Below are positions 4,946 to 26,314 of a stretch of 28,052 nt of DNA, piece by piece. The DNA lies in the IMG/VR virus record IMGVR_UViG_3300042453_005804, positions 30,001-58,052 of that record; one strand, written 5' to 3'. Numbering within the stretch: the first letter of the stretch is position 1; every line of letters starts with the position of its first letter. The notes below the pieces were generated by a model. The model saw nothing but the letters and a program-made list of their open reading frames with translations, did not search any database and had not been told where the DNA came from. Source of the stretch: a virus. Made by a program: the position numbers and the translations under genes.

Positions 4946-5014
4946 CTAAGTTAAAAAATACTTAATGTGAATAACTTGGCTAGATTAAACGTGTAAGAGA
5001 TTAATGAAGTAAGA

Positions 5015-5386
5015 TCAAGAGTCGTATTTTCTAGACTTCTTGATTGCTTTTTTCTTTGACAGCCCGCCTGCCATCATTCTAGATATCAAAATGTCAGCAA
5101 AATCTTTGTCACCATCATCATCTTTGTCTAAATCTTCTTGCGATCCCTCTGCATGCAGTTCTTCTTTCACAACATCTCTAATAAAAGCTCTTAACTCCAA
5201 AAGACTATCTTCGTTATTCATCTTTGTACCTTCAGCCTCTATGGCAGCTATTTGACCCCTGGCTTTCTTTTTAGATGTATGACAAGCCCTGTGCTTTTTA
5301 CCTTTTTTATCAGTATAAGAAAGCACGTAACCGCCAGAATCTCCGTCACTCTGCTTACATTTTTGTTTACGTATCTTGTATGGCAT
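5015..5386 (-). CDS. Hypothetical basic/acidic protein with an internal LRxFIRD motif
   Basis: The N-half is basic (KIRKQKCKQSDGDSGGY...KKKARGQIAAIEAEG). It is followed by LLELRAFIRDVVKEEL and an acidic stretch. Confidence 0.55.
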   Translation of the reverse strand: MPYKIRKQKCKQSDGDSGGYVLSYTDKKGKKHRACHTSKKKARGQIAAIEAEGTKMNNEDSLLELRAFIRDVVKEELHAEGSQEDLDKDDDGDKDFADILISRMMAGGLSKKKAIKKSRKYDS

Positions 5387-5463
5387 TTGTTCTCTATCTT
5401 ATAAAATTATCTAAAAAACCTTTGTTTTTTCTATAACTATTATTATACGGCAGGGGGTTCATT

Positions 5464-5784
5464 ATGAACTTACGTTTCCTGAATGCGGTATGTTTTTTTT
5501 GCGTGACCTTATCTGGGTGTGTCGGCAGCGATTCTTCTTTTGAAGAAAGTGAAGAAATGGCCGACGAAGAATCCACCGAGATCTCTCAGCCTCCGAAAAA
5601 TCATGATCAAAAACCAGAACCTGTAACGAAAGATGATCACGACGACGAAAGCTTTGGTGGACCATGTCCAGTTGACACGTATTTAATTCTTGAAAAAGAT
5701 GGTGTGAAGTATATGGTAGAAATTCAGGTTTTTTGTGATCCAATACAGAACATCATAAATCTAGGTTGCCCTGAACCTTATTAA
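5464..5784 (+). CDS. Putative lipoprotein
   Basis: GGGGG lies 7 nt upstream of the ATG. The hydrophobic signal peptide ends in the lipobox L-S-G-C (FFCVTLSGC), and the mature part is acidic. Confidence 0.6.
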   Translation: MNLRFLNAVCFFCVTLSGCVGSDSSFEESEEMADEESTEISQPPKNHDQKPEPVTKDDHDDESFGGPCPVDTYLILEKDGVKYMVEIQVFCDPIQNIINLGCPEPY

Positions 5785-5930
5785 TCTGAATCTTCTTCAT
5801 CACTTTGAACGATACCATGCCCTTGGCACCTGTCTTCTTGTGGCACACCAGCAAGCACATATTCAACGTGTTTTCCGCAACCTCCATATGTCAGTTTGTT
5901 GCAAATATCGCAACGTCTTCTATAGCACAT
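5781..5930 (-). CDS. Small Cys-rich protein, 49 aa (below the ORF-track cutoff)
   Basis: Hand translation gives MCYRRRCDICNKLTYGGCGKHVEYVLAGVPQEDRCQGHGIVQSDEEDSD. A purine-rich GGAAGAAAAGG lies upstream. A paralogue sits at 6654..6758. Confidence 0.45.
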   Translation of the reverse strand: MCYRRRCDICNKLTYGGCGKHVEYVLAGVPQEDRCQGHGIVQSDEEDSD

Positions 5931-5993
5931 ATTACCTTTTCTTCCATTCCATCATTAGCCTGTCATTCGATGATACCTTTTAAATTTCTGGGT

Positions 5994-6335
5994 TTACTGA
6001 GCATTTCTTACTGCGTCAGCCAACGTCTCGCTGCCATTGTATTTTAGCGAATCGTCTTGCCACAGGACAACAGGATCATCATAACCTTTTGTGACCATCA
6101 TTGGAACATTTGTTCCAAATCCAAACATACTTCCAGAACCTTGGACTGCAAATGAAGCTGCGTCTAATTCAGGTTGTTTGTATTTTGCCTGAAGTATTTT
6201 GGCGAACCTTGGAAACTTCTTTTGTATTTCTTCAAAGCTGGTCTTCTTGAGACCTTTCGCGGACATCTCATTTAAATTGGCTGCTTCTAGAAACTCTCTA
6301 ATGAGTTTTCTCAAACGCTTCTCACTCTGTTGCAT
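5994..6335 (-). CDS. Hypothetical protein, LRxxIRE motif family
   Basis: The N-terminus is MQQSEKRLRKLIREFLEAANL. The start overlaps the upstream stop by 1 nt (TAATG). Confidence 0.6.
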   Translation of the reverse strand: MQQSEKRLRKLIREFLEAANLNEMSAKGLKKTSFEEIQKKFPRFAKILQAKYKQPELDAASFAVQGSGSMFGFGTNVPMMVTKGYDDPVVLWQDDSLKYNGSETLADAVRNAQ

Positions 6336-6562
6336 TACTTAGTTTCCTTTTTACTTTTCTTAGATTTCAGACCCATGTCTTCTGCCCACTTGTTTATTTT
6401 ATCTTTTATGTCATTGGGAACGTAAACGCTGTCTGCTTTATAAGCAGGATCATCTAGTAGATCTTCATGATAGCTCTCTTCCGGATGAGATCCCGCATGA
6501 GAAGAGTATTCTTTCACGAATTCTTTTATTAAAATTCTTAATGCTTTTTCGTCAGAATTCAC
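6335..6562 (-). CDS. Hypothetical acidic protein, LRxxIKE motif family (start moved to GTG at 6562)
   Basis: The track start at 6607 lies inside the palindromic terminator at 6588-6615. The in-frame GTG at 6562 gives (M)NSDEKALRILIKEFVKEY, the usual position of the family motif. Confidence 0.5.
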   Translation of the reverse strand: MNSDEKALRILIKEFVKEYSSHAGSHPEESYHEDLLDDPAYKADSVYVPNDIKDKINKWAEDMGLKSKKSKKETK

Positions 6563-6587
6563 GTCAATACTTATCTCAAGCAAATAA

Positions 6588-6615
6588 AAAAAGCTGTGGA
6601 GCTCCACAGCTTTTT
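6588..6615 (-). terminator. Perfect 28-nt palindrome, bidirectional intrinsic terminator
   Basis: AAAAAGCTGTGGAGCTCCACAGCTTTTT has A/T runs on both sides. Confidence 0.6.
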
Positions 6616-6653
6616 ATTCGTTTTTAAGTTTAAATCAAGGCTCGCCGCCAAAG

Positions 6654-6758
6654 CTAGGTACTTCCTCCAAAGATTTGTTCCGCATGTTTTCCACATCCAC
6701 TATAAGTGAGCTTATTTCGAATATCACATCTTCGTCTATAACATATTGACGTCCTCAC
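6654..6758 (-). CDS. Small Cys-rich protein paralogue, 34 aa, GTG start (possibly decaying)
   Basis: The product (M)RTSICYRRRCDIRNKLTYSGCGKHAEQIFGGST is paralogous to 5781..5930. The codon matching the paralogue's ATG is ATA here. An upstream GTG overlaps the previous stop as GTGA. One Cys is replaced by Arg. Confidence 0.3.
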   Translation of the reverse strand: MRTSICYRRRCDIRNKLTYSGCGKHAEQIFGGST

Positions 6759-7297
6759 TTCGTGACATGAGACTGGTTAAATTTATTTTTCAACCATGAA
6801 GTAAATGCTCTATCAGCATCGGGCAATTCATCTTCATCGTCATAATATCTAAGTCGACTTAGAAACTCTTTTTCGAATTCATTTTCTAATTTATCGTCCA
6901 CAATATCAGTGGTGTCAGGATCGATGGAAAGGTAGTCGAAGAATGGATTTTTCTTTTTCTCTGCGGGGTCTAATTCTTGTGCAGCTTTGTAAGCATCATA
7001 TGCCGCCGTGCCAGCTTCAATCGCCCCCATCTTCGCTGCCGCGGCAATTAACGCTGGCGCGCTCGCCGCGCCAGCGAGCGCACCAATTATCCCAACAACA
7101 GTTGCTTTTCCAACAGATTTTGCTGCTTCTTTAGCTTTCGCTATATTTTTATGCTTTTGTATAAACTGTAGAGCTTGTCTAAGATCTCCTGCAGTATATA
7201 CTATGCGTTCAGTAATTATATCTTCCTGCACCAACGATCTAGTGCCCAGAGATTCTTTGATGTATTCTCTAAGGAGTTTTTCATCTTTTCGATTCAT
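6755..7297 (-). CDS. Hypothetical protein, LRxYIKE motif family, with an Ala/Gly-rich hydrophobic core
   Basis: The N-terminus is MNRKDEKLLREYIKESL. The central segment VVGIIGALAGAASAPALIAAAAKMGAIEAGTAA looks like a glycine-zipper or membrane segment. Confidence 0.6.
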   Translation of the reverse strand: MNRKDEKLLREYIKESLGTRSLVQEDIITERIVYTAGDLRQALQFIQKHKNIAKAKEAAKSVGKATVVGIIGALAGAASAPALIAAAAKMGAIEAGTAAYDAYKAAQELDPAEKKKNPFFDYLSIDPDTTDIVDDKLENEFEKEFLSRLRYYDDEDELPDADRAFTSWLKNKFNQSHVTK

Positions 7298-7318
7298 AGA
7301 TTTTCGACAAATAAATAC

Positions 7319-7350
7319 AACCGCAGGAGGGAGTATTCCCTCCTGCGGTT
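7319..7350 (-). terminator. Intrinsic terminator after the Gly-rich lipoprotein gene
   Basis: AACCGCAGGAGGGA-GTAT-TCCCTCCTGCGGTT forms a 14-bp stem. In minus sense it is followed by GTATTTATTTG. Confidence 0.6.
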
Positions 7351-7373
7351 AAAGCTTTATGCTTTTTTATTTT

Positions 7374-7598
7374 TCAAACGCCGCCGCCGGCACCACCAAC
7401 ACCCGGTGCCCCACCTGTTGCACCACCACCAACTCCCGTGCCACCAGTTCCAGGTGCTCCACCCGTCGAAGTAACTGCACCACCTTGACCAGCACCACCG
7501 GCTCCACCGGCGCCGGTACCAGTCGAACCTGAATCATCGCCGCAAGCAGCGAGAGCGACGGCGGCGACGATAAACAATGCGATAGTATTCTTGATCAT
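7374..7598 (-). CDS. Gly-rich putative lipoprotein
   Basis: The signal peptide and lipobox are MIKNTIALFIVAAVALAAC. About 55 residues of G/A/T/S-rich low complexity follow. The segment is locally much more GC-rich than its surroundings. Confidence 0.55.
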   Translation of the reverse strand: MIKNTIALFIVAAVALAACGDDSGSTGTGAGGAGGAGQGGAVTSTGGAPGTGGTGVGGGATGGAPGVGGAGGGV

Positions 7599-7682
7599 TT
7601 TTCTTTAACCTTGTCAACCGAAAGTACGGTTGATACAAAGAATATATCACATTCAAGCATTGTTTACAATGTATTCAGACAA

Positions 7683-8081
7683 TCATTTTCCTCTCAAAAT
7701 TTGAGAAACTGGTTTTCTAGACCATAGGCGGCAGCTCCAGTAGGCTGCTTTTGTCCTATCTGAAGCCCTTTTTGTACCACATCCGTGACGGGCCCTAAAA
7801 GACTTACGAGCTTTCGGATTGTCACGTCGAATTTCCATGTTAGGATCCCCGAAGTTGACTTTCTTCACATTTCCCGTCCTCTTATCTTTGACGTAGACCT
7901 TGTATTTTTTTACGTCACCTTTCATGGGTTTGCCGAGTTGAACATCACGACCTCGATACTCAGCTTCTGTCAACATGTCGATTTGTTCAACGTTGAGCTC
8001 GTACTCATCGAATACCCCTGCTTCCATCAACATGAAAGCTTCACTTATGATCTCTCTTAAAATGCTTATGGTGACCTGCAT
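7683..8081 (-). CDS. Hypothetical protein, LRxIISE motif at the N-terminus and a basic C-terminal domain
   Basis: The N-terminus is MQVTISILREIISEAF. The C-terminal block is KKYKVYVKDKRTGNVKKVNFGDPNMEIRRDNPKARKSFRARHGC...YWSCRLW. From memory this block resembles a widespread viral hypothetical family, which I have not verified. Confidence 0.6.
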   Translation of the reverse strand: MQVTISILREIISEAFMLMEAGVFDEYELNVEQIDMLTEAEYRGRDVQLGKPMKGDVKKYKVYVKDKRTGNVKKVNFGDPNMEIRRDNPKARKSFRARHGCGTKRASDRTKAAYWSCRLWSRKPVSQILRGK

Positions 8082-8133
8082 GTAAATAAACTTTCTACAA
8101 ATTTACGATAAGTATATACGAGCTTCTTATAAT

Positions 8134-8439
8134 CTATTCTTTGGTTTCCTCTTTAGGGGCGGCTTCTGCTGCTGCGTCTGCAGGCGTAGCTCCCTTAGTT
8201 TTAAAACCTATATACTCTGCAGCGTCGGCGGGACGGCTTGGGTCCCCATCAGATCCTTGCGCTCTTCCTGGAGATCTGTACCAATATCCTTGGATGTCCA
8301 CGCCTCGTTCAATCTCATAGGGATAAAACCCAGATTTTTCAGTGGGGTCGGCCGTGACTCCAGGACCAGATGGGCCCTCTTGCAGATGCTTCCTGATGAT
8401 TTTACGTAACTCTTTGAGGCTAATTTTGATCGTTCTCAT
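8134..8439 (-). CDS. Hypothetical protein, LRxIIRK motif family (start moved to ATG at 8439)
   Basis: The internal ATG gives MRTIKISLKELRKIIRKHLQEG, the family's normal N-terminal position. GAGGAA lies upstream. Confidence 0.55.
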   Translation of the reverse strand: MRTIKISLKELRKIIRKHLQEGPSGPGVTADPTEKSGFYPYEIERGVDIQGYWYRSPGRAQGSDGDPSRPADAAEYIGFKTKGATPADAAAEAAPKEETKE

Positions 8440-8605
8440 CTTCGAGATCTTCCTCAATATAACCTTGAGAACCAAGCATCTCTAACTCTTCTACATCCAA
8501 AGGATCGTTCACGGATCCCATCCAACGTCCTGGCATCCACGTTTCCTCTTCGATTATTTCTCTAATGACTCTTCGGAGTTCAGACAATCTTAGCTTCATA
8601 CGCAA
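8420..8605 (-). CDS. Hypothetical acidic protein, LRxVIRE motif family
   Basis: The N-terminus is MRMKLRLSELRRVIREIIEEE and the C-terminus is acidic. Confidence 0.55.
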   Translation of the reverse strand: MRMKLRLSELRRVIREIIEEETWMPGRWMGSVNDPLDVEELEMLGSQGYIEEDLEDENDQN

Positions 8606-8660
8606 AGACTATATATGGATTCAGCATATCATATTTACAAATATTTGAATACATATTGTC

Positions 8661-9077
8661 ATGATGAATGACGAAAGCGTTGGCAGAGACTGGAATGAAG
8701 GAGAGGAAGATCACGAAGGGTACATGGCTGTCGCACAACTTCACAGAATAGTGGAGATGTCGAACATGATGTTGGATGTCATAGGTGAGAATGACGAAAT
8801 ACCAGGTTGGATACAATACAAGATCACGAGAGCGTACAATGATTTAAACGACGCTTTTGCTTATATCGAGTATGAATCTCACGAAGAATCTCCAGAAGTA
8901 CCAGGCGAAGTTCTTGAAGGTCGTAAGAAGAAGAAAGGATTATGGGCTAATATTCACGCGCGTCGAAAAGCTGGAAAGCGACCAAAGCGACCAGGCGAAA
9001 AAGGTTACCCAAAGACTCTTGACATCGGCGAATCGATCGTTAGAGAATTTATAAAAGAAATTATGAAAGAAAAGTGA
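8661..9077 (+). CDS. Hypothetical protein with the family motif at the C-terminus
   Basis: The N-half is acidic. A basic block KKKKGLWANIHARRKAGKRPKRPGEKGYPK follows, and the protein ends in ESIVREFIKEIMKEK. Confidence 0.6.
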   Translation: MMNDESVGRDWNEGEEDHEGYMAVAQLHRIVEMSNMMLDVIGENDEIPGWIQYKITRAYNDLNDAFAYIEYESHEESPEVPGEVLEGRKKKKGLWANIHARRKAGKRPKRPGEKGYPKTLDIGESIVREFIKEIMKEK

Positions 9078-9137
9078 TGTTGGTAGGCGTCTTGTTCCTT
9101 CTCATAGGAATCGGAATATTTGTGGCGACTCTGGGGC

Positions 9138-9422
9138 TTAAGACGTAGATTTGTTAGAAACAGTTTCTAATTGAGACACGTGAAATTCTCGAACTTCAAA
9201 GGGATTATTCAAGACTCTAACGACGGCGATGTCTTGGACTTCAGCATGAAATCCAGCGACGATGTAAAGAGACCCGTATAGAGGATCTTCAACCCATTCG
9301 TAAATCCAGCGAACTATATCACCAATGATAGGTTTATTCTGAGGAAGATGACACGGCATGCTGATTTTCCGTAAATCTTGAAGAATTTCGTCAGGCTCGC
9401 TGGTTTCAGCTGCGCTCATCAT
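9138..9422 (-). CDS. Hypothetical protein
   Basis: ORF in the same-strand train with no recognisable motif. Confidence 0.45.
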   Translation of the reverse strand: MMSAAETSEPDEILQDLRKISMPCHLPQNKPIIGDIVRWIYEWVEDPLYGSLYIVAGFHAEVQDIAVVRVLNNPFEVREFHVSQLETVSNKSTS

Positions 9423-9439
9423 TTTCTTATCAATAATTA

Positions 9440-9670
9440 TCAGCTTTCGTCATGATCGTCAGAATTTTGATCCAACGTTTTTTCGATGATTCGTTTAAAA
9501 GCAAGCCAAATAATCGCAACAAATCCTTCAGCGATTATTTGCGTAGCTACCCACCCGTAACAAATGATGGTCATACCTATCATCGCTGAATCTGGATTTG
9601 AGAACGATTTGAAACCAACGAATGCCAAAGCTGTCAAAAAAGCAAGTGATACAGCTGCCTTTAAAGTCAT
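9440..9670 (-). CDS. Small membrane protein (2-3 hydrophobic helices)
   Basis: Hydrophobic segments are AVSLAFLTALAFVGF, MIGMTIICYGWVATQII and GFVAIIWLAF, with an acidic tail. Confidence 0.55.
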   Translation of the reverse strand: MTLKAAVSLAFLTALAFVGFKSFSNPDSAMIGMTIICYGWVATQIIAEGFVAIIWLAFKRIIEKTLDQNSDDHDES

Positions 9671-10068
9671 TACATTCTTCCCTTGTGATTAGTTGCCGAA
9701 GATTGAGTGATCGTCTTAAATCTTACGCCTGGATCAGTGGACAGATGAGATCCTAATTGACAGCTCTTGCCCTTATGGTATCCTGCGTTGTTCCTGTAAA
9801 ATGATGAGTACTTTTCGCGATCAGCAGTAGAGTCAAAAGCAAGAACGGTGACAGAAGCCTGTTTGCCGTCGCCATTGGCCAATCCCAGGTATTTCACCGT
9901 AGATTCTACCGAACATTCCGGGCACGTGTTGACTCGGCCACCGGCACGAATCTTTGCAGGCGAATTTGTATCGAACATGCAACTACACTCCACGCATTCT
10001 CTTAGCATGGATCCATCATAACATGATGGATGATGACTTTTCACCGTGGTGGCTGACATTGTGGACAC
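9670..10068 (-). CDS. Hypothetical protein with a zinc-ribbon-like Cys pattern
   Basis: It has CVECSC...CPEC. The start overlaps the Nei 3' end by 28 nt. Confidence 0.45.
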   Translation of the reverse strand: MSTMSATTVKSHHPSCYDGSMLRECVECSCMFDTNSPAKIRAGGRVNTCPECSVESTVKYLGLANGDGKQASVTVLAFDSTADREKYSSFYRNNAGYHKGKSCQLGSHLSTDPGVRFKTITQSSATNHKGRM

Positions 10069-10868
10069 CAGTGGACCATCCTTCCTCCGTTGTCACGTTC
10101 GCTGCGGATCTCATGACCCTTGGGACATCGTGATCTAGCGTACACCTTGAAGAAAAATTGAGATGTTCCCGTTAATCCATTCACGTCCCTGTAGGTCTTG
10201 ATAGAGGCTCCTTGAGACAAATAGGACTGACGAGAAATCTTCGCGGATTCCTCACATAACCTTATGTACTCTTGAGAAGATATGTCAGTCACGTTACACC
10301 ATGGATCAACACCGCAGGCGAACAGAATCTCTGCACGTAGATAGTTGCCAATCCCAGCCACCGTAGATTGATCCATGAGGGCCTCGCAGATTGTCCTATT
10401 GGGTTTACCCAGCGTTCTTTTTGTGAATATTTCTGGTGTCAATTCGTCATCTCCAAGAACATCAGGACCGAGACTTTCCAATTTCTTTCTGTGCACTCCT
10501 TCATCTTTGACGAATTTTAGTGTACCGAACCTACGAACGTCGTGAAACCCGATGCTCTTTGAATCTTCACCATACGAGAGTATCACGGCGGTGTTTCTAT
10601 CTGGCGGTGTGGTTGTCCATTGACCTGACATACCATATGTGCACCACATTTTCCAGGGACCCATCGTCCACCACATGAACTTGCCTTTGACGTCGACGGA
10701 TTCGACAACGTAAGAATTCTTCTCGTTATCTCGCAGAAATTCGTGCAATCCCTCGATGGGTTTCTTGGTGTATCGTCCGCCGACGAGGTCGAACTTTTTG
10801 ATGCGTTTGTTGAGCAAAATCTCTCTTAAAAGATCTCTTGAATGACGAAGCTCGGGACCTTCAGGAAT
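10041..10868 (-). CDS. nei: Endonuclease VIII (Nei)/Fpg-family DNA glycosylase-AP lyase, apparent ATT start
   Basis: Extending the track ORF upstream in frame gives I-PEGPELRHSRDLLREIL, matching the E. coli Nei N-terminus MPEGPEIRR. The H2TH motif is GIGNYLRAEILFACGVDP. The C-terminal zinc finger is CPKGH...HWCPQC. No ATG, GTG or TTG precedes PEGPEL in frame. Confidence 0.85.
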   Translation of the reverse strand: MPEGPELRHSRDLLREILLNKRIKKFDLVGGRYTKKPIEGLHEFLRDNEKNSYVVESVDVKGKFMWWTMGPWKMWCTYGMSGQWTTTPPDRNTAVILSYGEDSKSIGFHDVRRFGTLKFVKDEGVHRKKLESLGPDVLGDDELTPEIFTKRTLGKPNRTICEALMDQSTVAGIGNYLRAEILFACGVDPWCNVTDISSQEYIRLCEESAKISRQSYLSQGASIKTYRDVNGLTGTSQFFFKVYARSRCPKGHEIRSERDNGGRMVHWCPQCQPPR

Positions 10869-16207: not shown

Positions 16208-16978
16208 TCAAACTAAAGAAATACCGTAACGATTGGACAAGTAGTTCAACGTATCTGTGCGTTCAGTCGAGGCATGTTGCTTGTGATAAATTAGAATTTC
16301 AGCAATTTTCCCGACGAATGGACCGTAAGAAGCCTGTGCAAATCCACCAATTCGAAGTTCCGGGCAAGGATTTGGAATATTCCAAGGAACAGCATCCCCG
16401 GAACTTGCAAGTGTGCCAGTTGAACCATTGATCAAAATTTCAGCGCTAGACATGTTTGCACCGCTCGCAGAAAATGCTGCTGAAATTTGTGCGTTTGAGT
16501 TTGCTACATACTTTTTGGAGGCATTGCCGTAACCGTCAACTCCTATTACGTGAGGAGCAGGACCATAATAGCAAAAACACACTCGACCATTAGTAGAACC
16601 TTCTTGACCCCAACCGACGAGACCCAGCAAGTCTGTCGAAAATGTGGGATCATTTACTACATATATGCTAAAAGCACTTGAACCCGTTGACCAATTAGGA
16701 GGTGTGAGACGATACAGCTGCTGAGACCCATTGAAGCTAATAGCCTTTCGACTGTTAAACTCAGGTGAACTTGTAGAGAGTGTGGGTTGAGAGACACTTG
16801 GTACAGGTACCAAGTCGACTCCATTTCCAGATCGATCTGTCCAAGTAAAAACCGTTGAACCATTCGACTGATTGATATCATCTGCCCTGTACCATGCTCC
16901 CAATGAATCCGTGGGTGGGCTGGGTTCAGGTGCAACAACTGCAGGTCTTACTCTAACACCATTTAATTTTATACTCAT
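16208..16978 (-). CDS. LamG/concanavalin-A-like lectin domain protein (paralogue family, type B)
   Basis: The N-terminus is MSIKLNGVRVRP. It has W(Y/F)(R/K)AD...TWTDRSGNG...ISFNGSQ and the C-terminus GKIAEILIYHK...YLSNRYGISLV. It is closest to 24568..25404. Confidence 0.75.
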   Translation of the reverse strand: MSIKLNGVRVRPAVVAPEPSPPTDSLGAWYRADDINQSNGSTVFTWTDRSGNGVDLVPVPSVSQPTLSTSSPEFNSRKAISFNGSQQLYRLTPPNWSTGSSAFSIYVVNDPTFSTDLLGLVGWGQEGSTNGRVCFCYYGPAPHVIGVDGYGNASKKYVANSNAQISAAFSASGANMSSAEILINGSTGTLASSGDAVPWNIPNPCPELRIGGFAQASYGPFVGKIAEILIYHKQHASTERTDTLNYLSNRYGISLV

Positions 16979-17039
16979 AAAGTCCTCTTCTAAATTAGGT
17001 ATATGTATCCGCTTTACAAAGTATCAAAAAGTCATGAAA

Positions 17040-17075
17040 ATTCAGGACCAAGGCTAAAAGGCCGAGGTCCTGAAT
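17040..17075 (-). terminator. Repeated hairpin terminator, copy 2
   Basis: ATTCAGGACC-AA-GGCT-AAAA-GGCC-GA-GGTCCTGAAT. The inner stem differs from copies 1 and 3 but still pairs. Confidence 0.6.
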
Positions 17076-17099
17076 AGTTTTTGTCGTTATGTTTGATGT

Positions 17100-18071
17100 T
17101 TAGATCGTTATGGTCTGTGTTGGTGCTCCGTCAAATTTTTTCCAAACAACAGGAGAAGCACTAGAACAAACGTAGATTCCCGTGTCGGAGTAAACGACAT
17201 CTCCTGCCACGGGAGCGGCAGGCAGTTCAGCCGAGCCATCTGGATTTGCGAAAGCTGTTGCAGAAGGTGTGAAATCAGCAGAATATCTTGCGATACCTTT
17301 GCTGACTCTAATTTCATCGATATATCCGTGAAATGGATATTGAATAGCGTTCAATCTGTCAGCGCCAATTACAACTGCAGCTACGGAATTAGTTGGTACG
17401 TTGGCAAAAGTTGCTCCTTGTCTAATACCATTCCAATAGATGGATGTGTTACCTGAGAGTTTTACTACGGCAAAGTGATACCAGGTTCCCGTTGTTATCG
17501 TTGGAACCGTTCTCGTCACAAGACCAGATGCAGCAAAGCCAATTGTCGTAGAATTTATAATATAAAATTGCCAATCTTGAGAAATGGTAGTTTGATGTTT
17601 TGCAATTGGACACATTTGAGATGCGAGAGAGCTGGGGTTTACCCAACCTTCTATCGTAAAATCTCCTGTACTTAAGTTGAAATCGTTATTATATGAATAA
17701 TAGAAATAGTCACCATTTCCATCAAAATATCCGCTAGACCCGCCAAATTTGCTATCGGTTGTACTAATCTTTGCATTGCCACTAACTGTGGCAGCTTTTG
17801 GTGTATAAGAATTGTCGGTAAACGTCGTGCTGTTGTTTGCTCCATTCATGTGAAGAAGCAAAGAGACTGAAGAGTCTCCTACCGTTGCTATGTATGTAGA
17901 TGAAGGCCCATTGGATGTTAGAGTGCCTGCAGACAAATCCAGACCATCGCCAACAACAACCTGTGATCCATCACCTGCCAAAATTTTTGTTCCATCACCA
18001 GGCCAGGAAACTCCACCACCAGCACCACCAGATGCAGGTTTTATTCTTACGCCATTAAAATTTATAGCCAT
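17100..18071 (-). CDS. LamG (LamG_3-like) domain protein, paralogue family type A
   Basis: The N-terminus is MAINFNGVRIKP. It has GDFTIEGWV...WYHFAVV...IYWNG...GYIDEIRVSKGIARY, the classic LamG_3 pattern. Confidence 0.8.
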   Translation of the reverse strand: MAINFNGVRIKPASGGAGGGVSWPGDGTKILAGDGSQVVVGDGLDLSAGTLTSNGPSSTYIATVGDSSVSLLLHMNGANNSTTFTDNSYTPKAATVSGNAKISTTDSKFGGSSGYFDGNGDYFYYSYNNDFNLSTGDFTIEGWVNPSSLASQMCPIAKHQTTISQDWQFYIINSTTIGFAASGLVTRTVPTITTGTWYHFAVVKLSGNTSIYWNGIRQGATFANVPTNSVAAVVIGADRLNAIQYPFHGYIDEIRVSKGIARYSADFTPSATAFANPDGSAELPAAPVAGDVVYSDTGIYVCSSASPVVWKKFDGAPTQTITI

Positions 18072-18115
18072 AACTACTCCTCAGAGACATCTGTAGACAT
18101 CTCTTAAGAATAAAT
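18036..18115 (-). repeat. Conserved 5' module (first 12 codons, SD and 5'UTR), copy A
   Basis: 18036-18089 is identical to 19968-20021 (54 nt), and similarity continues for about 26 nt more. It includes GAGGAG-TAGTT-ATG. Confidence 0.8.
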
Positions 18116-18149
18116 ATAAATTCAATTATGAATTAGTCATTAAATAAAA

Positions 18150-18183
18150 TTCAGGACCAAGGTCGAAAGGCCGAGGTCCTGAA
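18150..18183 (-). terminator. Repeated hairpin terminator, copy 3
   Basis: The core TTCAGGACCAAGGTCGAAAGGCCGAGGTCCTGAA is identical to copy 1. In minus sense it is followed by TTTTATTT. Confidence 0.65.
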
Positions 18184-18206
18184 AAGTTTTTATTGATTAT
18201 TCTTAA

Positions 18207-19064
18207 TCAGATATTGATGTTTCTGCCTGCCTGATCGAACACCTTCCAGGTAACTGGTGAGGCACTCGTGCAGATGTAAGCTCTATCATCAGAATAGACA
18301 GCTTGACCAACTATTGGGCTCGATGGTAGCTCAACAGATCCATTTGCATTTGAGAAAGCTGAGGCAGGAGGCGTGAAGTTTGCGGTGTAACGACCTACTC
18401 CCTTTGTGACCCTAACTTCATCAACATATCCATTAAGATGATGTGAGGTGTTGTTGGTGGCATTTTTACCAATGACCCATTTGCTTACTGTATTGTTCAT
18501 CGCAGGAGCCACAGCACTGGCGCCAGCCTGTACTCCATTCCAGAACAATCTAAATGTGCCAGAAGTTTTTGACATTGCCCAGTGGTACCAGGTTCCTGTT
18601 GACATTGCTGAAACTGTTCTTGACATGAACCCGCCACCTATAGCATTGTATCCCACCACGATCGTTGTTGAATTTTGAATATCAAAGCCTATATCGTAAC
18701 CGCCGAAAACGCTTTGATAACTTGCAAAAGAATTTAGATTTACCCATCCTTCAATTGTGAAATCACCTGCTCCAAATTGAAGATCTGTTCCTCTGTCAAA
18801 TTCTATGTAATCACCATTACCATCAAATGCCGCAGAAGAACCACCAAACTTACTTGCAGCAGTGCTGATTTTAGCATTGCCGTAAGCGGTGACGGTTTTT
18901 GGTGTATAAGAACTGTCGGTAAATGTCGTGCTATTATTGGCTCCATCCATGTGAAGAAGCAAAGAAACCGTTGAATCACCAACGGGTTGAATATAAGTTG
19001 CTGTGTTTGAATTGACTGGTGCGGCGCAAGGTTTAATTCTTACGCCATTAAAATTTATAGTCAT
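18207..19064 (-). CDS. LamG (LamG_3-like) domain protein, paralogue family type A
   Basis: The N-terminus is MTINFNGVRIKP. It has GDFTIEGWV...WYHWAM...LFWNG...GYVDEVRVTKGVGRY. By eye the N-half is very similar to 17100..18071. AAGGAG lies upstream. Confidence 0.8.
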   Translation of the reverse strand: MTINFNGVRIKPCAAPVNSNTATYIQPVGDSTVSLLLHMDGANNSTTFTDSSYTPKTVTAYGNAKISTAASKFGGSSAAFDGNGDYIEFDRGTDLQFGAGDFTIEGWVNLNSFASYQSVFGGYDIGFDIQNSTTIVVGYNAIGGGFMSRTVSAMSTGTWYHWAMSKTSGTFRLFWNGVQAGASAVAPAMNNTVSKWVIGKNATNNTSHHLNGYVDEVRVTKGVGRYTANFTPPASAFSNANGSVELPSSPIVGQAVYSDDRAYICTSASPVTWKVFDQAGRNINI

Positions 19065-19087
19065 AATTTAATCTCCTTTTATTGTTC

Positions 19088-19993
19088 TCAACCTAAGGTG
19101 TATCTACGCCATGTGGGAACTGCCGCATCAGTACATTCGTAAAGAAAGCCATTGCTGTCTTTGGCCATTTTTCCAAGCTCTGCTGTTGGGTAGGTTAAAA
19201 CCCCTGTTCCAAAAGCTGAAGTGGAAGGGGTGAAGTTTGCACTGTATCTAGCAGTATCAGAGAACCTGACCTCATCAATGTATCCATTAATGGTACGCAC
19301 TCCGGTATCTCCAGGAAGACCGCCGGGTAGACTTAAAGAATGACCTAACCCAATGTCTCCGGCAGATGGCATGCTAAGAAAATAACTGCCTGCTCTTGTA
19401 ACATATAGCGTACCATTAATATAAATTTTGATATGTTGACCTGAAGTGCCAACAATGGCGATGTGATGCCATTGACCAGTTGGCGGAACCCATCCTGGGC
19501 TCACCGCGTAGTGGAAAGATCCTCCATACGAATTTTCAAGGTATAGTTGACCTGCGTTGTTCATTATTAGAGCAGGTCCTTGATACCAAGCTGAAGTATT
19601 AAAATGTATCAGCGACGTCCAAGGTATGAGTGATATGTAGTAGAACCATAACTCAATGGTAAAACTACTTCCACCTGTAGGACCAAAGTTTACCTTGTTA
19701 TTAGTATTAGTGCACTTAAATTTAGAAGCATTATTGCCGTTGAAATACAACGAAGAACCGCCGAATTTTGACTGAGCAGTCTTTATTACGGCAGCTCCTG
19801 AAAATGTTCCTGTTCCTGGATTAGATGAATCATCTGTAAAAGATGTTGATCCATCCGCACCGTCAAAGTGTGCCAAAAATTTCGTGTATGAATCACCAGT
19901 TATTGTTTCGAAACTTGTTATGTTGTTGGAAGGTGATGCTGCACCACCTCCTGCGCAAGGTTTTATTCTTACGCCATTAAAATTTATAGCCAT
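19088..19993 (-). CDS. LamG (LamG_3-like) domain protein, paralogue family type A
   Basis: The N-terminus is MAINFNGVRIKP. It has FTIELWF...WHHIAIV...IYINGTL...GYIDEVRFSDTARY. Confidence 0.8.
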   Translation of the reverse strand: MAINFNGVRIKPCAGGGAASPSNNITSFETITGDSYTKFLAHFDGADGSTSFTDDSSNPGTGTFSGAAVIKTAQSKFGGSSLYFNGNNASKFKCTNTNNKVNFGPTGGSSFTIELWFYYISLIPWTSLIHFNTSAWYQGPALIMNNAGQLYLENSYGGSFHYAVSPGWVPPTGQWHHIAIVGTSGQHIKIYINGTLYVTRAGSYFLSMPSAGDIGLGHSLSLPGGLPGDTGVRTINGYIDEVRFSDTARYSANFTPSTSAFGTGVLTYPTAELGKMAKDSNGFLYECTDAAVPTWRRYTLG

Positions 19994-20073: not shown

Positions 20074-20676
20074 TCACTCAAAGCTATAAGACACGTCGAC
20101 CTTCACCTTGAGGCTAGGCACTCGTAAATGGTTTGCCAGACCGATCGATTGGGCTTCTTCTGCGTCCAAATACCAGTCGGCGTGTGACCTATCATGAATT
20201 TGCTTCAAAAAGAATTCAGGTTCCTTGCCACAATTTGCCGCCATTTCTCTATAAACAAGCTGGTTTAGTCTATCACCTTCTTTTGCGTCGGCCTTGATCT
20301 CTTCGATCTTTCCCCTGGCACCACTAGAAACATCATGGATCATGATGGTGGCGTGCTTATCCATGAAACGATAACCAGAAGTACCGTAGCTGAACAACAA
20401 CGCACCACATGACATGGCCTTACCTTCGACGATTGTTGCCACCGGAATGTTTGAAGCCTTAATGTTTGCGATCATGGACATGAGAGAGTAGACTTGACCC
20501 CCATAAGAGTCTATGACCACTGGGATCATCGTTTGACCCGTGGACTGCGCGGCCGACATTTGATTGGAGAACTTTTCGGCGGCTTCCTCATCAAATTTAT
20601 TCACCCTGATGATCACTGGGTTGTAACGTAGCTCGACTTTTTCTAAACGTTTTGAGATGTCTTTAATGATATTCAT
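20074..20676 (-). CDS. ClpP/S14-family serine protease (cellular-type ClpP or phage prohead-type; not resolved)
   Basis: IPVVIDSYGGQVYS...GKAMSCGALLF (Ser), ATIMIHDV (His) and the C-terminal ADWYLDAEEAQSIGLANHL align with the ClpP Ser-His-Asp blocks. Confidence 0.8.
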   Translation of the reverse strand: MNIIKDISKRLEKVELRYNPVIIRVNKFDEEAAEKFSNQMSAAQSTGQTMIPVVIDSYGGQVYSLMSMIANIKASNIPVATIVEGKAMSCGALLFSYGTSGYRFMDKHATIMIHDVSSGARGKIEEIKADAKEGDRLNQLVYREMAANCGKEPEFFLKQIHDRSHADWYLDAEEAQSIGLANHLRVPSLKVKVDVSYSFE

Positions 20677-20705
20677 ATGTTTTTACAGATTATAAATATA
20701 CAACA

Positions 20706-21080
20706 GGTGGAGCCAACCGGTACTGCCCCGGTGTCCGCAATTCTTCAATCAAACAATTCGTCCACAGGCTTGGAATGATTTTATCGACGCCATCCTAGTC
20801 TATTCGATCTGACCAATTTTACGACCGGTCGGATCGAAACCCGTTAGTCGTCTTCCGGAACCACCTTCCGAGAGAAACCCACCTCATACAATGAGGATAA
20901 CCATTGATTGTGACTTTCTGTTTCTAGGTTGTCACCACCCAACCAGTCAGGCCGCTAGGGCAGCTGGAGCGTAGCCGTTGTCGTTGGCAACTATACGTCA
21001 CTTGGATTTTTACCAGGTTCCTCGTGCACCTGGGCCTGCATAGATCGATGTCAAAACCACGTCGAAACTATTTTGGCCCC
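20706..21080 (-). ncRNA. ssrA: tmRNA (SsrA), standard one-piece form
   Basis: The minus-sense 5' end is GGGGCCAAAAUAGUUUCGACG and the 3' end is GGACACCGGGGCAGUACCGGUUGGCUCCACC. The acceptor stem GGGGCCA/UGGCUCC has a G3-U wobble. Blocks AGGUGCA, GUAAAAA and UAGUUGCCAACGAC match E. coli ssrA. The tag frame encodes ANDNGYAPAALAA then a stop. Confidence 0.85.
20947..20988 (-). other. tmRNA tag reading frame (resume codon GCC to TGA)
   Basis: GCC AAC GAC AAC GGC TAC GCT CCA GCT GCC CTA GCG GCC TGA encodes ANDNGYAPAALAA. The E. coli tag is ANDENYALAA. Confidence 0.8.
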
Positions 21081-21084: not shown

Positions 21085-21411
21085 TCATTTGCTTTTTCGT
21101 GGTCTTCCTTTTTGCTTATTTCTTGAGGAAGAAGAAGCAGGCACAAATTTTTTAATTAATTCTTCTCTAGGTATTGATTCATTTATTTTCTTAATCTCGT
21201 CTTCTAGATCTTTAATCTTGTTTGTCTCAGACTTTAACCATTTATCGAACCCAGTTGTTACGGTTTTTTGCCAAGAATTTTCCAATGAAGAAAGCATTAT
21301 ATGCTCTATTTTCATAAGAATATCGTGGCGAGAAACAGAGTCGTTCGAAAGTAACACAGCTTTATATAAATCGAGCAATTCTTGCGGCGATAATTGTAAC
21401 ATCATATTCAA
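21085..21411 (-). CDS. Hypothetical protein with an AT-hook-like basic tail
   Basis: The C-terminus is SSSSRNKQKGRPRKSK, with a GRP core flanked by basic residues. The stop lies 4 nt before the tmRNA 5' end. Confidence 0.5.
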   Translation of the reverse strand: MNMMLQLSPQELLDLYKAVLLSNDSVSRHDILMKIEHIMLSSLENSWQKTVTTGFDKWLKSETNKIKDLEDEIKKINESIPREELIKKFVPASSSSRNKQKGRPRKSK

Positions 21412-21929
21412 TCCATCACACCATAAAATAGGTTGGCTTTAAGTAAACTGGTCCATTCCTTTGGAAACTTTGAAACTTGAAAAGTCTTTTCATCACCTTC
21501 CTCATTTACCAGTGTGATTTCTTTTCCGCGGCGGATAACCTGCAAAACTCTATCTCCTTCTTCAACGACAGTTCCATCGTCATTAATGATGTCGAATCGA
21601 AGATCTACATCATCACCAAAAAAAGATAGATTGCCCGTCTCTTCGTCAGAAGTTTTGGCTCGACAAGGAGGCAAATCCATTAAACTCCATGCTGAAACCT
21701 CCTCATCATGAGACCGAAGTTCTACTTTTACTTTTTCATCTTGATCATCCTCTAAATCATTGTCTTCATCATCATGATGAATGAGTTCATCTTCGAGAAG
21801 ATGCATGATTTCTTCAACTCCATCTTGAGTTCTCATACTGACATCTGGGAGCATGAGATAGTGAAAAAGAACGTTATGTAGAAACAACTTTTGTGAAGGT
21901 GTAATTTTCATCATTGTTAAATTAATCAA
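21408..21929 (-). CDS. Hypothetical acidic protein
   Basis: The 173-aa ORF has an HHDDEDNDLEDDQDEK stretch and a 4-nt overlap with the next gene. Confidence 0.5.
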   Translation of the reverse strand: MINLTMMKITPSQKLFLHNVLFHYLMLPDVSMRTQDGVEEIMHLLEDELIHHDDEDNDLEDDQDEKVKVELRSHDEEVSAWSLMDLPPCRAKTSDEETGNLSFFGDDVDLRFDIINDDGTVVEEGDRVLQVIRRGKEITLVNEEGDEKTFQVSKFPKEWTSLLKANLFYGVMD

Positions 21930-21950: not shown

Positions 21951-22316
21951 TCAAGTACTTTTTGTGACGTTTACTCCGACGTCAGATAAAATCTGTAGCA
22001 TTTTGCTCGCTGCGGCCGAGTCCGAAGAAATGATGACTCGCTTCGTGGGGTTCTTCCCAATTTCAGCCAACGTAGCTATCGCCCTTGCGGCATGAATGCC
22101 ATCGTAAAGTCTCTTGAACCCGTTGCCGTCGAACCAAGAATCAGGTTCAGCTGCAGAGGAAAGGTCATCATCGAGGTACACGATGTCCCAATCTTGCCCG
22201 TCTATCTGCTGCAAAAATTGTAGGTAACGGTGCGCATGTAACACATCAGAATTTTCGTGGTGCGCTGCAATTGCAAGAAACTCACTCTCAGAATCGTTTA
22301 GAACCAATACTTTCAT
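21951..22316 (-). CDS. Hypothetical protein, possibly receiver-like (cREC-type) fold
   Basis: The pattern MKVLVLND...DIVYLDDDL...NGF...RVIISSDSAAASKM loosely matches phage receiver-like domains. The assignment is weak. Confidence 0.45.
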   Translation of the reverse strand: MKVLVLNDSESEFLAIAAHHENSDVLHAHRYLQFLQQIDGQDWDIVYLDDDLSSAAEPDSWFDGNGFKRLYDGIHAARAIATLAEIGKNPTKRVIISSDSAAASKMLQILSDVGVNVTKST

Positions 22317-22362: not shown

Positions 22363-22767
22363 ATGTCACTTAATAATCCAAGTTCAGGCTTTTTTAGCAC
22401 ACCAGAATTTCAAACTTCAGGTTTGCCATGGACAGTTACAGCTGCCACTAGCGGAGTAATCGTCACCAAGTACTCTTTACCAAAAGTCACTAAAAGTATA
22501 ACTTTCGTGAATACTGACACGACGGCAACCAATAGAATCAGGATTGGATTTACTGAGAATGGAATTAACGGCACAAATTACGTATTAGTAAATGGTGGTC
22601 AAACTATCACCCTTGATGCAAGAGTGAAAGAAATATTCATTAGAGCAAACGCTTCAGGAGCATATACGTACAGCGTTTACTGCGCGTTAACCACGATCGA
22701 TGGAAGGTTCATGCCAATTCTAACCGGTTCTGTCGACGGATCCAATTATTGGGATGGTGTCGGCTGA
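22363..22767 (+). CDS. Hypothetical beta-rich protein (possible virion structural protein)
   Basis: The 134-aa product is T/S/V/G/N-rich with alternating beta-strand-like patterns and no charged low complexity. A structural role is a guess. Confidence 0.5.
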   Translation: MSLNNPSSGFFSTPEFQTSGLPWTVTAATSGVIVTKYSLPKVTKSITFVNTDTTATNRIRIGFTENGINGTNYVLVNGGQTITLDARVKEIFIRANASGAYTYSVYCALTTIDGRFMPILTGSVDGSNYWDGVG

Positions 22768-23324
22768 TCTTTACCCCACTGTCCTCGATAAAACGCCATG
22801 GCTACTGTGGCGGCTGATCCGACGTTCAACGATCTAACCGATCCCCATTGCGGGATGTAGATCACATCATGGGCCGCCACCATTGATTCAGGAGATACCC
22901 CAATTGATTCTTGCCCTAAAACAAGCAATGTATCTTCATACCATTTATAATCATAAATCGAAGAGGCTCCTGGAACATTATCTAGCACGACCACTCTATG
23001 ATTCGGGTTCTTGGAGATAACGCTCCCAATATTCTCTTCATAGTTTACGTGCTCATAATTATGCGTACCGCAAGCTCCGCGCCGATCCCAACGCCTTCGA
23101 CCAACGATGATCACTTCGTTGCACAAGAAAGCATTTGAAGATCTCACGACGGTTGAGATGTTGAAGTCATTTCCAAAATTCTCAGCCACGATTTTCAAAC
23201 GGCACCTGTTCTTGTCTTGGTCGGCTAGGATCGCATCGTGCTCCCAATATTTGTAATAATCGATGACGTTCCTATGATCGAACTGTCCCTGTGGCCACGA
23301 CGGATTTTTCAAGTCACTCATCAA
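22746..23324 (-). CDS. SpoU/TrmH-family RNA 2'-O-methyltransferase
   Basis: NFGNDFNISTVVRSSNAFLCNEVIIVG, LVLGQESIGVS and IPQWGSVRSLNVGSAATVAMAFY match SpoU motifs 1-3. Confidence 0.85.
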   Translation of the reverse strand: MMSDLKNPSWPQGQFDHRNVIDYYKYWEHDAILADQDKNRCRLKIVAENFGNDFNISTVVRSSNAFLCNEVIIVGRRRWDRRGACGTHNYEHVNYEENIGSVISKNPNHRVVVLDNVPGASSIYDYKWYEDTLLVLGQESIGVSPESMVAAHDVIYIPQWGSVRSLNVGSAATVAMAFYRGQWGKDQPTPSQ

Positions 23325-23334
23325 ATTTCCTTTT

Positions 23335-23577
23335 TTATGGCTGTTCGAACGAATTTAGATAAGATAAAGAAAAGAAACCTTTTGACCCATCTTCCTTTAT
23401 GATCTCTGCGAAAGCGTTGTCAGCACCTCCGCTTTTTTCCTCTACAATTTCAAGAATAATTCCTACAGCAAAATCGTCAATGAAGACAGAGGGGGATACT
23501 GACTCATGATAAGATCCAAACTTATCGTAGAGAACCAAATCACCTTTTTTGAATGTAATGCTTTGGGTCATAAACAA
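23335..23577 (-). CDS. Hypothetical small protein
   Basis: ORF in the same-strand train. It has a KKGDLVLY...GIILEIV pattern similar to 2670..2888. Confidence 0.45.
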   Translation of the reverse strand: MFMTQSITFKKGDLVLYDKFGSYHESVSPSVFIDDFAVGIILEIVEEKSGGADNAFAEIIKEDGSKGFFSLSYLNSFEQP

Positions 23578-23791
23578 TCTCTATATTTCTATGGCGAACC
23601 TCATCTCGCCAATCTTCGATGGACCCCCAAGGTGCCGTGACGCCTGCCACGTCTACACGCTGTATCTCATCCTCTAAAATATCCGTTATCATTAATGGCC
23701 GATCAGGTCTTGCAACGTGGATGAAAACCATCCCAGCTGCAGGAGGCGGAACTCGCAACTCAATCCACGTAGGTTTTCTAAACATTTCCAT
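23540..23791 (-). CDS. Hypothetical small protein
   Basis: ORF in the same-strand train. It overlaps the tilS 3' end by 14 nt. Confidence 0.45.
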   Translation of the reverse strand: MEMFRKPTWIELRVPPPAAGMVFIHVARPDRPLMITDILEDEIQRVDVAGVTAPWGSIEDWRDEVRHRNIEIVYDPKHYIQKR

Positions 23792-24404
23792 GGTTTACCG
23801 CCTCTTTCTTCTCATCTTTAATATACATCTTCTTTACAACCTTGTCAAGACCAGGATTAATCACCATCGCCTCAGGAACAATTTTGTGACGAATCAAGTT
23901 CCTCATATACTTCAAATCGTTATTGGATTTATCCTCCACCCACTTCAATCCTTTTTTCTCCGCCCAATCAATCAGCTCAGACTTTGGGGTGATGAGAAAA
24001 GGCCTGATGACGTTGTTCCTCTGGTAGGGCAACACCCTAGGATTTCCATGGAGAGAATTGAAGATCCATGTTTCCACCGCGTCTCCAAGGTGATGGGCGG
24101 TAATAACAGGAAATTCGTACATCGAAAGGAAACGATACCTTTCATTCCTCCAGTATTCCTCCATCGATTCCCCAGGAGGTTTTTCACCGCTGATCCGCCC
24201 GATTGAGAGCGTGAGGTTACGTTCCTTGGAAAATTCCTTGGCGAATACCTCGGCCTCATCGGACGTCGCAGTTCCATGGTGAAAAAACGCCAGGTGAACA
24301 TCACGTTTACCGTTCAGAAGGAAATCAGTTACAGCCACCGAATCAACTCCGCTGCTGAAGGCAACAACGCACTTCCGAGGTAGCTTTCCTAGGAACCTGA
24401 TCAT
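23778..24404 (-). CDS. tilS: tRNA(Ile)-lysidine synthetase TilS, N-terminal PP-loop ATPase domain only
   Basis: The PP-loop is AFSSGVDS. Other matches are HLAFFHHGT..SDEAEVF, WRNERYRFL, ITAHHLGDAVETWIFNSLHG and IRPFL...KSELIDWAEKKGLKWVEDKSNNDLKYMRNLIRHKIVP. At 208 aa it lacks the C-terminal tRNA-binding domains of long TilS. Confidence 0.85.
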   Translation of the reverse strand: MIRFLGKLPRKCVVAFSSGVDSVAVTDFLLNGKRDVHLAFFHHGTATSDEAEVFAKEFSKERNLTLSIGRISGEKPPGESMEEYWRNERYRFLSMYEFPVITAHHLGDAVETWIFNSLHGNPRVLPYQRNNVIRPFLITPKSELIDWAEKKGLKWVEDKSNNDLKYMRNLIRHKIVPEAMVINPGLDKVVKKMYIKDEKKEAVNHGNV

Positions 24405-25519: not shown

Positions 25520-26314
25520 ATGGCTATAAAGATAACAGGTTCAGGTGGTTCGTTCAGACTTAGAGGAACAGGGGGAGGTATGAAGGTTACTTCGTCGGGA
25601 GGGGGAGGTAGTGGCGGAGGTTCTCCCATCGTCTCGTCGGGTTTAATCCTCCATCTCGACGCAGGTAACCCAGCATCCTATCCTGGCAGCGGTACAACAT
25701 GGACCGACTTGAGCGGAAACGGAAAACATGCCACACTCTACAATTCGCCGACTTATTCAGCAACGAATGGCGGGATAGTATCGTTCAGCAAACCTTCCAC
25801 ACAGTATGCGGCCGGTCCTGCTCTCGGTGCTCAGACCGAATGGACCATCTGCATGTGGGTCAGAAGGGATGCAGACGATCCCTCAGGGTCTGAGCAGTTT
25901 TTCACCGACGAGACCTCACCAAGTGGGAATGGAAGCGTCAACTATTGCTTAGGACACCTGTACTCAACATCAGGAGTCTCAACAAACACATATGTCATTG
26001 GCAATAATTGGTTCGGCACCTCGGGTTCACCCTTCTCAGCGACCCTTGGCGCCTTCTACTTCCTTGTCGGTATGAAGGACTCAGCAGGATTCAAATTGTA
26101 CTCCAACAATTCCTTGGTGGCCTCTTCGGCGGCGGGGGCAATAGGAGGATTAAATGGTTTGGAAGGCTACAGAATTGCCTCCAAATGGACCGGTTACGCA
26201 TCCCCTGTGTACCTGTCATGTACCGTAGGTTCCGTAGCCTTCTACAATAGGGCGCTTAACACCAGCGAACTAACACAGAACTGGGATGCTACTAGAACAC
26301 GTTTCGGTCTGTGA
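25520..26314 (+). CDS. LamG (LamG_3-like) domain protein with a Gly-rich N-terminal module
   Basis: The N-terminus is MAIKITGSGGSFRLRGTGGGMKVTSSGGGGSGGGS. It has LILHLDAGNPASYPGSGTTWTDLSGNGKHATL...WTICMWV...VAFYNRALNTSEL. Confidence 0.8.
   Translation: MAIKITGSGGSFRLRGTGGGMKVTSSGGGGSGGGSPIVSSGLILHLDAGNPASYPGSGTTWTDLSGNGKHATLYNSPTYSATNGGIVSFSKPSTQYAAGPALGAQTEWTICMWVRRDADDPSGSEQFFTDETSPSGNGSVNYCLGHLYSTSGVSTNTYVIGNNWFGTSGSPFSATLGAFYFLVGMKDSAGFKLYSNNSLVASSAAGAIGGLNGLEGYRIASKWTGYASPVYLSCTVGSVAFYNRALNTSELTQNWDATRTRFGL

Follow-up and report, generated by a model that had tools for sequence, protein, structure and literature searches.

Does a virus that encodes both a transfer-messenger RNA (tmRNA) and, directly downstream, a ClpP-family protease control the fate of stalled-ribosome products itself, or have two unconnected genes come to lie side by side? 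The question is raised by 28,052 nt of viral DNA (positions 30,001 to 58,052 of IMG/VR record IMGVR_UViG_3300042453_005804; this whole stretch is called the window below), for which a sequence-only reading had proposed that the two genes form a functional module, with the coincidental neighbourhood of a prohead maturation protease as its fallback. Since an identical protease is found on freshwater metagenome contigs of up to 282 kb, the window is a piece of a freshwater jumbo phage, for which contigs reach 313 kb. The answer that we favour, and hold to be probable, is that an accessory cassette, (p173)-p108-tmRNA, acts with host factors, and that a separate core ClpP gene came to adjoin it when, in one sublineage, recombination took place at the 3' end of the tmRNA.

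The RNA itself had been predicted at 20706-21080 on the minus strand. Rfam cmscan placed RF00023 at 20705-21080 (76.1 bits with a gathering score of 47, E = 4.1e-28, model positions 1-374), which confirms the call and moves its 3' end by one nucleotide, and the conserved UUCGACG, AGGUGCA and GUAAAAA blocks and the G3:U70 pair that had been noted were all found. Only half of the proposed check with ARAGORN or Infernal came out in this way: the covariance model matched over its full length while ARAGORN called no tmRNA in the window. Folding of the single sequence was uninformative (z = -0.97). To recover homologues we scanned IMG/VR and the JGI metagenomes for sequence patterns and then applied nhmmer and Rfam, which yielded about a dozen distinct tmRNA homologues or lineages; relatives of the window tmRNA score 74-115 bits with RF00023 (14 of 23 matches to a 20-mer in metagenomes were due to chance and contained no tmRNA). 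When the fold was laid over the 10 full-length homologues, 95.6% of cells were paired, and 25 pairs had changed on both sides, as against 12.9 +/- 1.9 in shuffled alignments (0 of 500 shuffles) and 1-10 in slid controls. The stems of the putative pseudoknot PK1 are 98% and 80% paired but nearly invariant, and other helices are backed by covariation. G3:U70 is unchanged in 10 of 10 homologues, and acceptor positions 5-7 carry compensatory changes. The window tmRNA ends in ACCU and encodes CCA only in part; the corresponding tails are ACCA in L167 and L155 and ACU or ACG in the other relatives. The tmRNA region gave no blastn match among 50,697 GenBank phage records. In search of a tmRNA from the host or a donor, we scanned 185,579 species genomes: none was found to encode the exact tag peptide, and the PK1-plus-tag-start pattern gave chance matches only. 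The window tmRNA is a genuine tmRNA.

The tag reading frame bears this out. As had been claimed, it translates to ANDNGYAPAALAA with an LAA degron at its end, followed by a stop codon, and it is preceded by the resume context UAGUU-GCC, in which the resume codon GCC specifies alanine. Variants among relatives read ANDNGYTPAALAA, ANDNGYVPVNLAA, ANDNDYAPVALAA and ANDNGTAPLALAA. The frame is kept in the 10 aligned full-length homologues, the sole exception being the distant L218, where the tag stop is mutated from TGA to TTA and the tag lengthened to about 40 residues. Judged by its residues, (A)ANDNGYAPAALAA would be a degron of the proteobacterial type (AANDxxY ... LAA).

ARAGORN misses this tmRNA because its T-loop, on an intact T-stem, is GGCAGUA and not of the UUCRANY type; U54, U55 and A58 are all lacking. 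The family contains two types of tRNA-like domain (TLD). In the first, found in 8 sequences including the window's, a GGCAGUR T-loop goes with a UAG D-loop (21068-21070, minus strand, in the window); in the second, found in 4 sequences (L013, L118, L162 and L177), a UUCRAWU T-loop goes with a GG D-loop. This pairing has no exception and looks like covariation of tertiary elbow contacts. The two types do not track the similarity of the tmRNA body, which suggests recombination between them. Within each type the T-stem and acceptor changes are compensatory, which argues that the variant elbow is kept by selection and is not a product of decay. The last point bears on a reading in which the window tmRNA is a decaying or non-canonical passenger, either inactive in trans-translation or an SmpB decoy, a role suggested for the DS6A phage RNA that consists of a TLD only (PMC4131195). 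Such a passenger could well have a T-loop without U54, U55 and A58 and an incomplete CCA, would score below its relatives (variant-type tmRNAs fall 20-40 bits short of canonical ones with the Rfam covariance model), and might be deleted in sister lineages or lose its tag stop codon, both of which are seen, the latter in L218. It would hardly be expected to keep GGCAGUA across 8 distinct sequences while the T-stem, acceptor stem and P2 change in a compensatory manner, nor an intact tag frame, UAGUU-GCC context and stop codon together with an invariant G3:U70. We therefore consider a passenger RNA distinctly unlikely.

If the tmRNA is genuine, which gene is its partner? The constant partner is the upstream p108 and not ClpP. 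In the window, the p108 stop codon stands 4 nt ahead of the tmRNA 5' end, and a p108 homologue (31-100% identical) lies upstream of the tmRNA in every family lineage that has upstream sequence. Homologues were found in L013, L113, L118, L122, L162, L165 and L177-L181; their stop codons fall 0-4 nt before the tmRNA or overlap it, and all of them precede a tmRNA or a tmRNA stub. In L177 the p108 stop codon lies within the tmRNA 5' end, and in L178 p108 reads through into the stub. Searches of Pfam, PHROG and PDB with p108 returned no match; its GRP(K/R)K tail resembles an AT-hook. Considering p108 as a possible analogue of SmpB, we rejected an SmpB-like fold: its AlphaFold model is all-helical, and p108 had neither a sequence nor a fold match in PDB. 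The gene upstream of p108, p173, has homologues in L118/L176, L162, L171 and L155; comparison ruled out that p108 and p173 are paralogues.

The link between the tmRNA and ClpP is of a different kind. The two genes share a strand and are separated by a spacer of 28 nt counted from the Rfam 3' end (the 29 nt reported earlier hold from 20706), with no terminator predicted in between. This arrangement, together with tags that all end in LAA and the recurrence of tmRNA-ClpP proximity in L155, L162, L171 and the distant L266 and L218, is what would be expected if the phage tmRNA tagged stalled-ribosome products and the adjacent phage protease degraded them. ClpP relatives amounted to 5065 protein clusters and to 392 loci in IMG/VR, and we compared gene order in the best 80 loci, at 62-100% identity and with up to 10 kb of flank per side. 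Among these 80 the tmRNA is present in the closest strains only; overall, it occurs near ClpP only in the sublineage of at least 83% ClpP identity, plus L266 and L218, and more than 180 related loci have ClpP without a nearby tmRNA. At 77-85% identity the gap between ClpP and the gene upstream measures 29-164 nt, which leaves no room for a tmRNA. In L012 (ClpP 99% identical) and L178 (with an intact 200-aa ClpP gene called), the tmRNA is reduced to a 5' stub of about 70 nt in which Rfam finds no tmRNA; the deletion appears to have occurred between ACGAG repeats. Even where both genes are present they can be parted, by about 790 extra nt in L162 and by an extra gene in L155. In the L162 insert (1861-2653) we saw neither a convincing open reading frame (ORF) nor an Rfam match. 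In L009, the genes that precede ClpP show no relation to p108 or p173.

The junction is best seen in L167, where p108 is 100% and the tmRNA about 98% identical to the window's. Homology between the two stops exactly at the tmRNA 3' end, and in place of ClpP a small coiled-coil ORF, a 74-aa ORF and a fibre-like protein follow. The fibre-like downstream context is common to L113, L165, L118 and L122, so that five tmRNA lineages have other genes downstream. Eight contigs (L155, L164, L170, L172, L177, L179, L180 and L181) end inside or just past the tmRNA, which fits assembly breaks at a junction that varies among strains. The ClpP loci number 392 and the tmRNA lineages about a dozen: in this large phage clade, ClpP is a core gene and the tmRNA is accessory.

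We then asked what kind of protease this core gene encodes. The earlier assignment to the ClpP family with an intact triad stands: the ORF matches Pfam CLP_protease (PF00574) at E = 5e-27, and Ser89, His114 and Asp167 align to S97, H122 and D171 of E. coli ClpP, whose sequence we checked against PDB entry 1TYF. Foldseek with a model of the protein confirmed the ClpP fold without separating functional classes. The alignment gives no counterpart of E. coli ClpP residues 1-20, which form the N-terminal axial loop, and a 16-aa C-terminal extension peculiar to this protease family is conserved. In what we take, from ClpP-ADEP and ClpX structures, to be the hydrophobic pocket that docks the IGF/LGF loops of ClpX and ClpA, the substitutions relative to E. 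coli ClpP are L48S, F49A, Y60P, Y62V, F82A, M92E and L114D, L189 is absent, and the charged replacements are kept throughout the family. By sequence, then, the protease would have the catalytic triad but lack what links canonical ClpP to ClpX or ClpA. ssrA tags are read by ClpX and SspB, not by ClpP. No clpX or clpA was found in the 28-kb window or in the 20-kb loci of relatives; smpB, clpX and sspB had been reported as not visible in the window, and indeed none had a Pfam match among the window ORFs tested. The module is thus not borne out, with ClpP persisting away from tmRNAs and beside stubs, five tmRNA lineages going without it downstream, and a protease that lacks the docking pocket and N-terminal loop, with no tag-reading gene among the window ORFs tested. 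Moreover, phage G has a tmRNA, ClpP and ClpX, and its tmRNA is unlinked to ClpP, lying about 165 kb away (PMC12484599). A tagging and degrading module therefore seems to us very unlikely.

Is the protease instead a prohead (head-maturation) protease, with the adjacency of the tmRNA a coincidence? With models of canonical ATP-dependent ClpP it stays below the cut-offs, both for NCBIfam NF001368 (83.4 vs 249 bits) and for TIGR00493 (71 vs 308.6 bits). Its top PHROG matches are head-maturation protease families (phrog_94, 83 bits), it matches NCBIfam Clp_rel_HeadMat (NF045542) at E = 2e-16, it lacks ClpX-docking features as prohead proteases do, and it is very strongly conserved as a core gene. 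The Clp_rel_HeadMat match, however, reaches 60.2 bits, under the cut-off of 120, and the nearest isolate relatives are stand-alone jumbo-phage ClpPs (71-77 bits) and not the head-module proteases of small phages (45-54 bits). Gene neighbourhoods argue the same way. Portal, scaffold and capsid genes never adjoin the protease in the window, L007, L009, L038 or seven isolates. Its neighbours are instead LamG proteins and PrkA in the window, RNR, DnaB and ThyX in L038, and NUDIX and UDPGP in L007; in the isolates RaK2, PBECO4, Tsamsa, PA5oct, a Vibrio phage, Phosso and phage G, the homologue adjoins genes for DNA ligase, dCMP deaminase, RNA ligase or topoisomerase. Among the synteny set, ClpP lies tail-to-tail with PrkA-SpoVR-YeaH at 77-85% identity, and at 62-72% identity its neighbours are RecA, 5'-3' exonuclease, DnaB, RNR, amidase, ThyX and Fpg. 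The protease gene belongs to the replication and nucleotide-metabolism arm of the clade's genomes. Finally, phage G has a separate head protease (PMC12484599), and Iyer et al. interpret jumbo-phage ClpP as host-directed (PMC7824862). Of the fallback offered by the sequence-only reading, the coincidence holds up, as the adjacency looks incidental, while nothing places the protease in a head module; a prohead role is a possibility that we regard as doubtful.

In PBECO4, RaK2, Tsamsa and PA5oct (L093, L312, L313 and L314), ClpP is within a few genes of DNA ligase, adjacent to it in Tsamsa, and, Tsamsa excepted, about 3 kb or less from dCMP deaminase. In RefSeq, the homologues from PBECO4, Tsamsa and PA5oct carry the name 'head maturation protease'; the GenBank record of RaK2 has a Clp protease subunit.

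Several observations weigh against an accessory cassette beside an unconnected core gene. No terminator separates the tmRNA from ClpP, and the two may be co-transcribed here. A wider motif scan covered 111 further ClpP loci, and two deep-branching ClpP relatives, L266 and L218, have a tmRNA no more than 1.5 kb away. In L266 a tRNA, a tmRNA (97 bits, tag ATQAAAAA), two ORFs and then ClpP follow one another on a single strand; in L218 a tRNA array closes with a tmRNA of the window's family, and ClpP comes next in convergent orientation. Of the 15 loci whose ClpP is less than 50% identical, four have tRNAs no farther than 2 kb away, the ClpPs of these four being only 27-39% identical to one another, and tmRNA-ClpP proximity may be above chance. 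Furthermore, the odd T-loop could impair tmRNA function, and the search for smpB and clpX covered about 28 kb, while the whole genome measures at least 282 kb, so that a phage copy may lie elsewhere. The proximity of tRNAs and tmRNAs to ClpP may reflect a shared early or nucleotide-metabolism arm that holds tRNA genes, or a weak coupling. In a stronger form of coupling, jumbo phages of the window group, of L266 and of L218, all deep lineages, would run a partly self-contained trans-translation and proteolysis, with a variant-elbow (GGCAGUA/UAG) tmRNA processed from the p108 3' end, p108 as a possible partner specific to the tmRNA, and a ClpX-independent ClpP-fold protease to remove the tagged products; we give this the slimmest chance of all the readings considered. 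The L218 array (1622-10320 of a 322.6-kb phage contig) comprises at least 25 tRNA genes and takes in the tmRNA as well.

The cassette would then work as follows. The tmRNA would be transcribed together with p108, given that only 4 nt set its 5' G apart from the stop codon of p108. Cleavage by RNase P and trimming at the 3' side would free it, and the host CCA-adding enzyme would finish its 3' end. Host alanyl-tRNA synthetase would charge it by way of G3:U70, and with host SmpB and EF-Tu it would free stalled ribosomes during infection. The (A)ANDNGYAPAALAA tag added in the process would presumably be read by host ClpXP/SspB and other host proteases. ClpP would have come beside the tmRNA in one sublineage, by recombination at the 3' end of the latter, with no conserved module involved. 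The features discussed are collected in the table.

Features of the tmRNA-ClpP locus, in window coordinates
Feature	Position	Strand	Basis
ClpP-family serine peptidase, 200 aa	20074..20676	-	Pfam CLP_protease, triad alignment
AT-rich spacer between tmRNA and ClpP, 28 nt	20677..20704	-	
One-piece tmRNA (ssrA) gene, 376 nt	20705..21080	-	RF00023 and covariation, 10 homologues
Acceptor stem 3' strand UGGCUCC and ACCU tail	20705..20715	-	
T-arm with non-canonical 7-nt T-loop GGCAGUA (loop 20721-20727)	20716..20732	-	
Tag reading frame GCC...TGA, encoding ANDNGYAPAALAA and stop	20947..20988	-	translation
Acceptor stem 5' strand GGGGCCA, with G3 of the G3:U70 alanine identity pair	21074..21080	-	
p108, 108 aa, predicted all-helical, basic GRP(K/R)K tail	21085..21411	-	
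p173, acidic protein upstream of p108, often in the same cassette	21408..21929	-	

Domain matches among the other window ORFs tested included five LamG proteins, GroEL, Fpg, a TilS-like PP-loop protein, YeaH-SpoVR-PrkA and a SpoU methylase. The SpoU-family RNA methylase and the TilS-like PP-loop ATPase (22746-24404, minus strand) are encoded a short way upstream of the tmRNA cassette and with a cREC_REC-like gene at 21951-22316 make up a small RNA- and translation-related gene cluster. On the other side, the YeaH/DUF444-SpoVR-PrkA operon of this jumbo phage (11651-16098, plus strand) lies tail-to-tail with ClpP throughout the clade of at least 77% ClpP identity; PrkA and SpoVR have likewise been reported from the Ralstonia jumbo phage RsoM2USA (PMC8504454). 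The five LamG (Laminin_G_3) paralogues are at 16208-19993 (minus strand) and 25520-26314 (plus strand). Three of them, at 17100-19993, have a common N-terminus, MAINFNGVRIKP, and the other two begin with a related but differing sequence. Their number and content differ among near-identical strains, some of which (L012, L013) have collagen-like GPQ/GAT repeats. The window also encodes an HNH endonuclease (1069-1407), a GroEL-type chaperonin (2885-4507) and an Fpg/Nei DNA glycosylase (10041-10817), all on the minus strand.

Were the module real, this would be the first virus shown to hold both the tagging and the degrading halves of ribosome rescue; the evidence points the opposite way, and most likely a lineage-specific rearrangement set the tmRNA beside a divergent ClpP-fold protease. 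Three consequences follow for work on such genomes. In lytic jumbo phages the tmRNA 3' end is a recombination breakpoint and the tmRNA gene is readily lost. Surveys of phage tmRNAs that rely on ARAGORN, such as the huge-phage and phage G studies, will overlook the variant T-loop class. PHROG-based annotation routinely calls jumbo-phage ClpPs 'head maturation protease' although they are located in replication arms, and those of this clade are without unfoldase docking sites.

Earlier reports describe tmRNAs of cluster C mycobacteriophages, of phage G and of huge phages (PMC4131195, PMC7162821, PMC12484599), and patchily distributed ClpP genes of jumbo phages (PMC7824862). Like the tmRNAs of Bxz1, Bacillus phage G and metagenomic huge phages, the one described here is in one piece, belongs to a large lytic-type phage, has no adjacent smpB and is presumed to sustain translation with host factors (PMC4131195, PMC7162821, PMC12484599). 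Unlike them, it has a variant T-loop/D-loop pair that ARAGORN misses, and it lies outside a tRNA array, fused to the 3' end of the conserved orphan gene p108. With the bacterial SsrA-SmpB system it shares the G3:U70 acceptor, a putative PK1, the resume context and an AANDxxY...LAA tag, and the Caulobacter tag AANDNFAEEFAVAA equals the window tag in start and length (PMC1233412). It differs from bacterial SsrA in three extra tag residues (APA) between the SspB-like and ClpX-like parts, and from SsrA-SmpB with ClpXP/SspB in the absence of smpB, clpX and sspB among the window ORFs tested. The protease, in turn, resembles the stand-alone ClpPs of RaK2, PBECO4/121Q, Tsamsa and phage G (gp257) in its ClpP fold, Ser-His-Asp triad and location away from head genes, although these are only 29-36% identical to it. 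PBECO4 gp105 retains a canonical N-terminal loop and part of the pocket, whereas the window protease has neither and carries its own C-terminal extension; in phage G, ClpX is next door to ClpP, and the window protease is without such a neighbour. The ClpP-related head maturation proteases (NF045542, PHROG 94) share with it a short N-terminus, the lack of unfoldase docking features and a significant similarity by hidden Markov model, but it falls under the cut-off for NF045542 and lies outside a head-morphogenesis cluster in all loci examined. Altogether, phage tmRNAs and jumbo-phage ClpPs were already known; what is new here is a tmRNA whose T-loop variant is notable and which has a conserved orphan gene as its partner.

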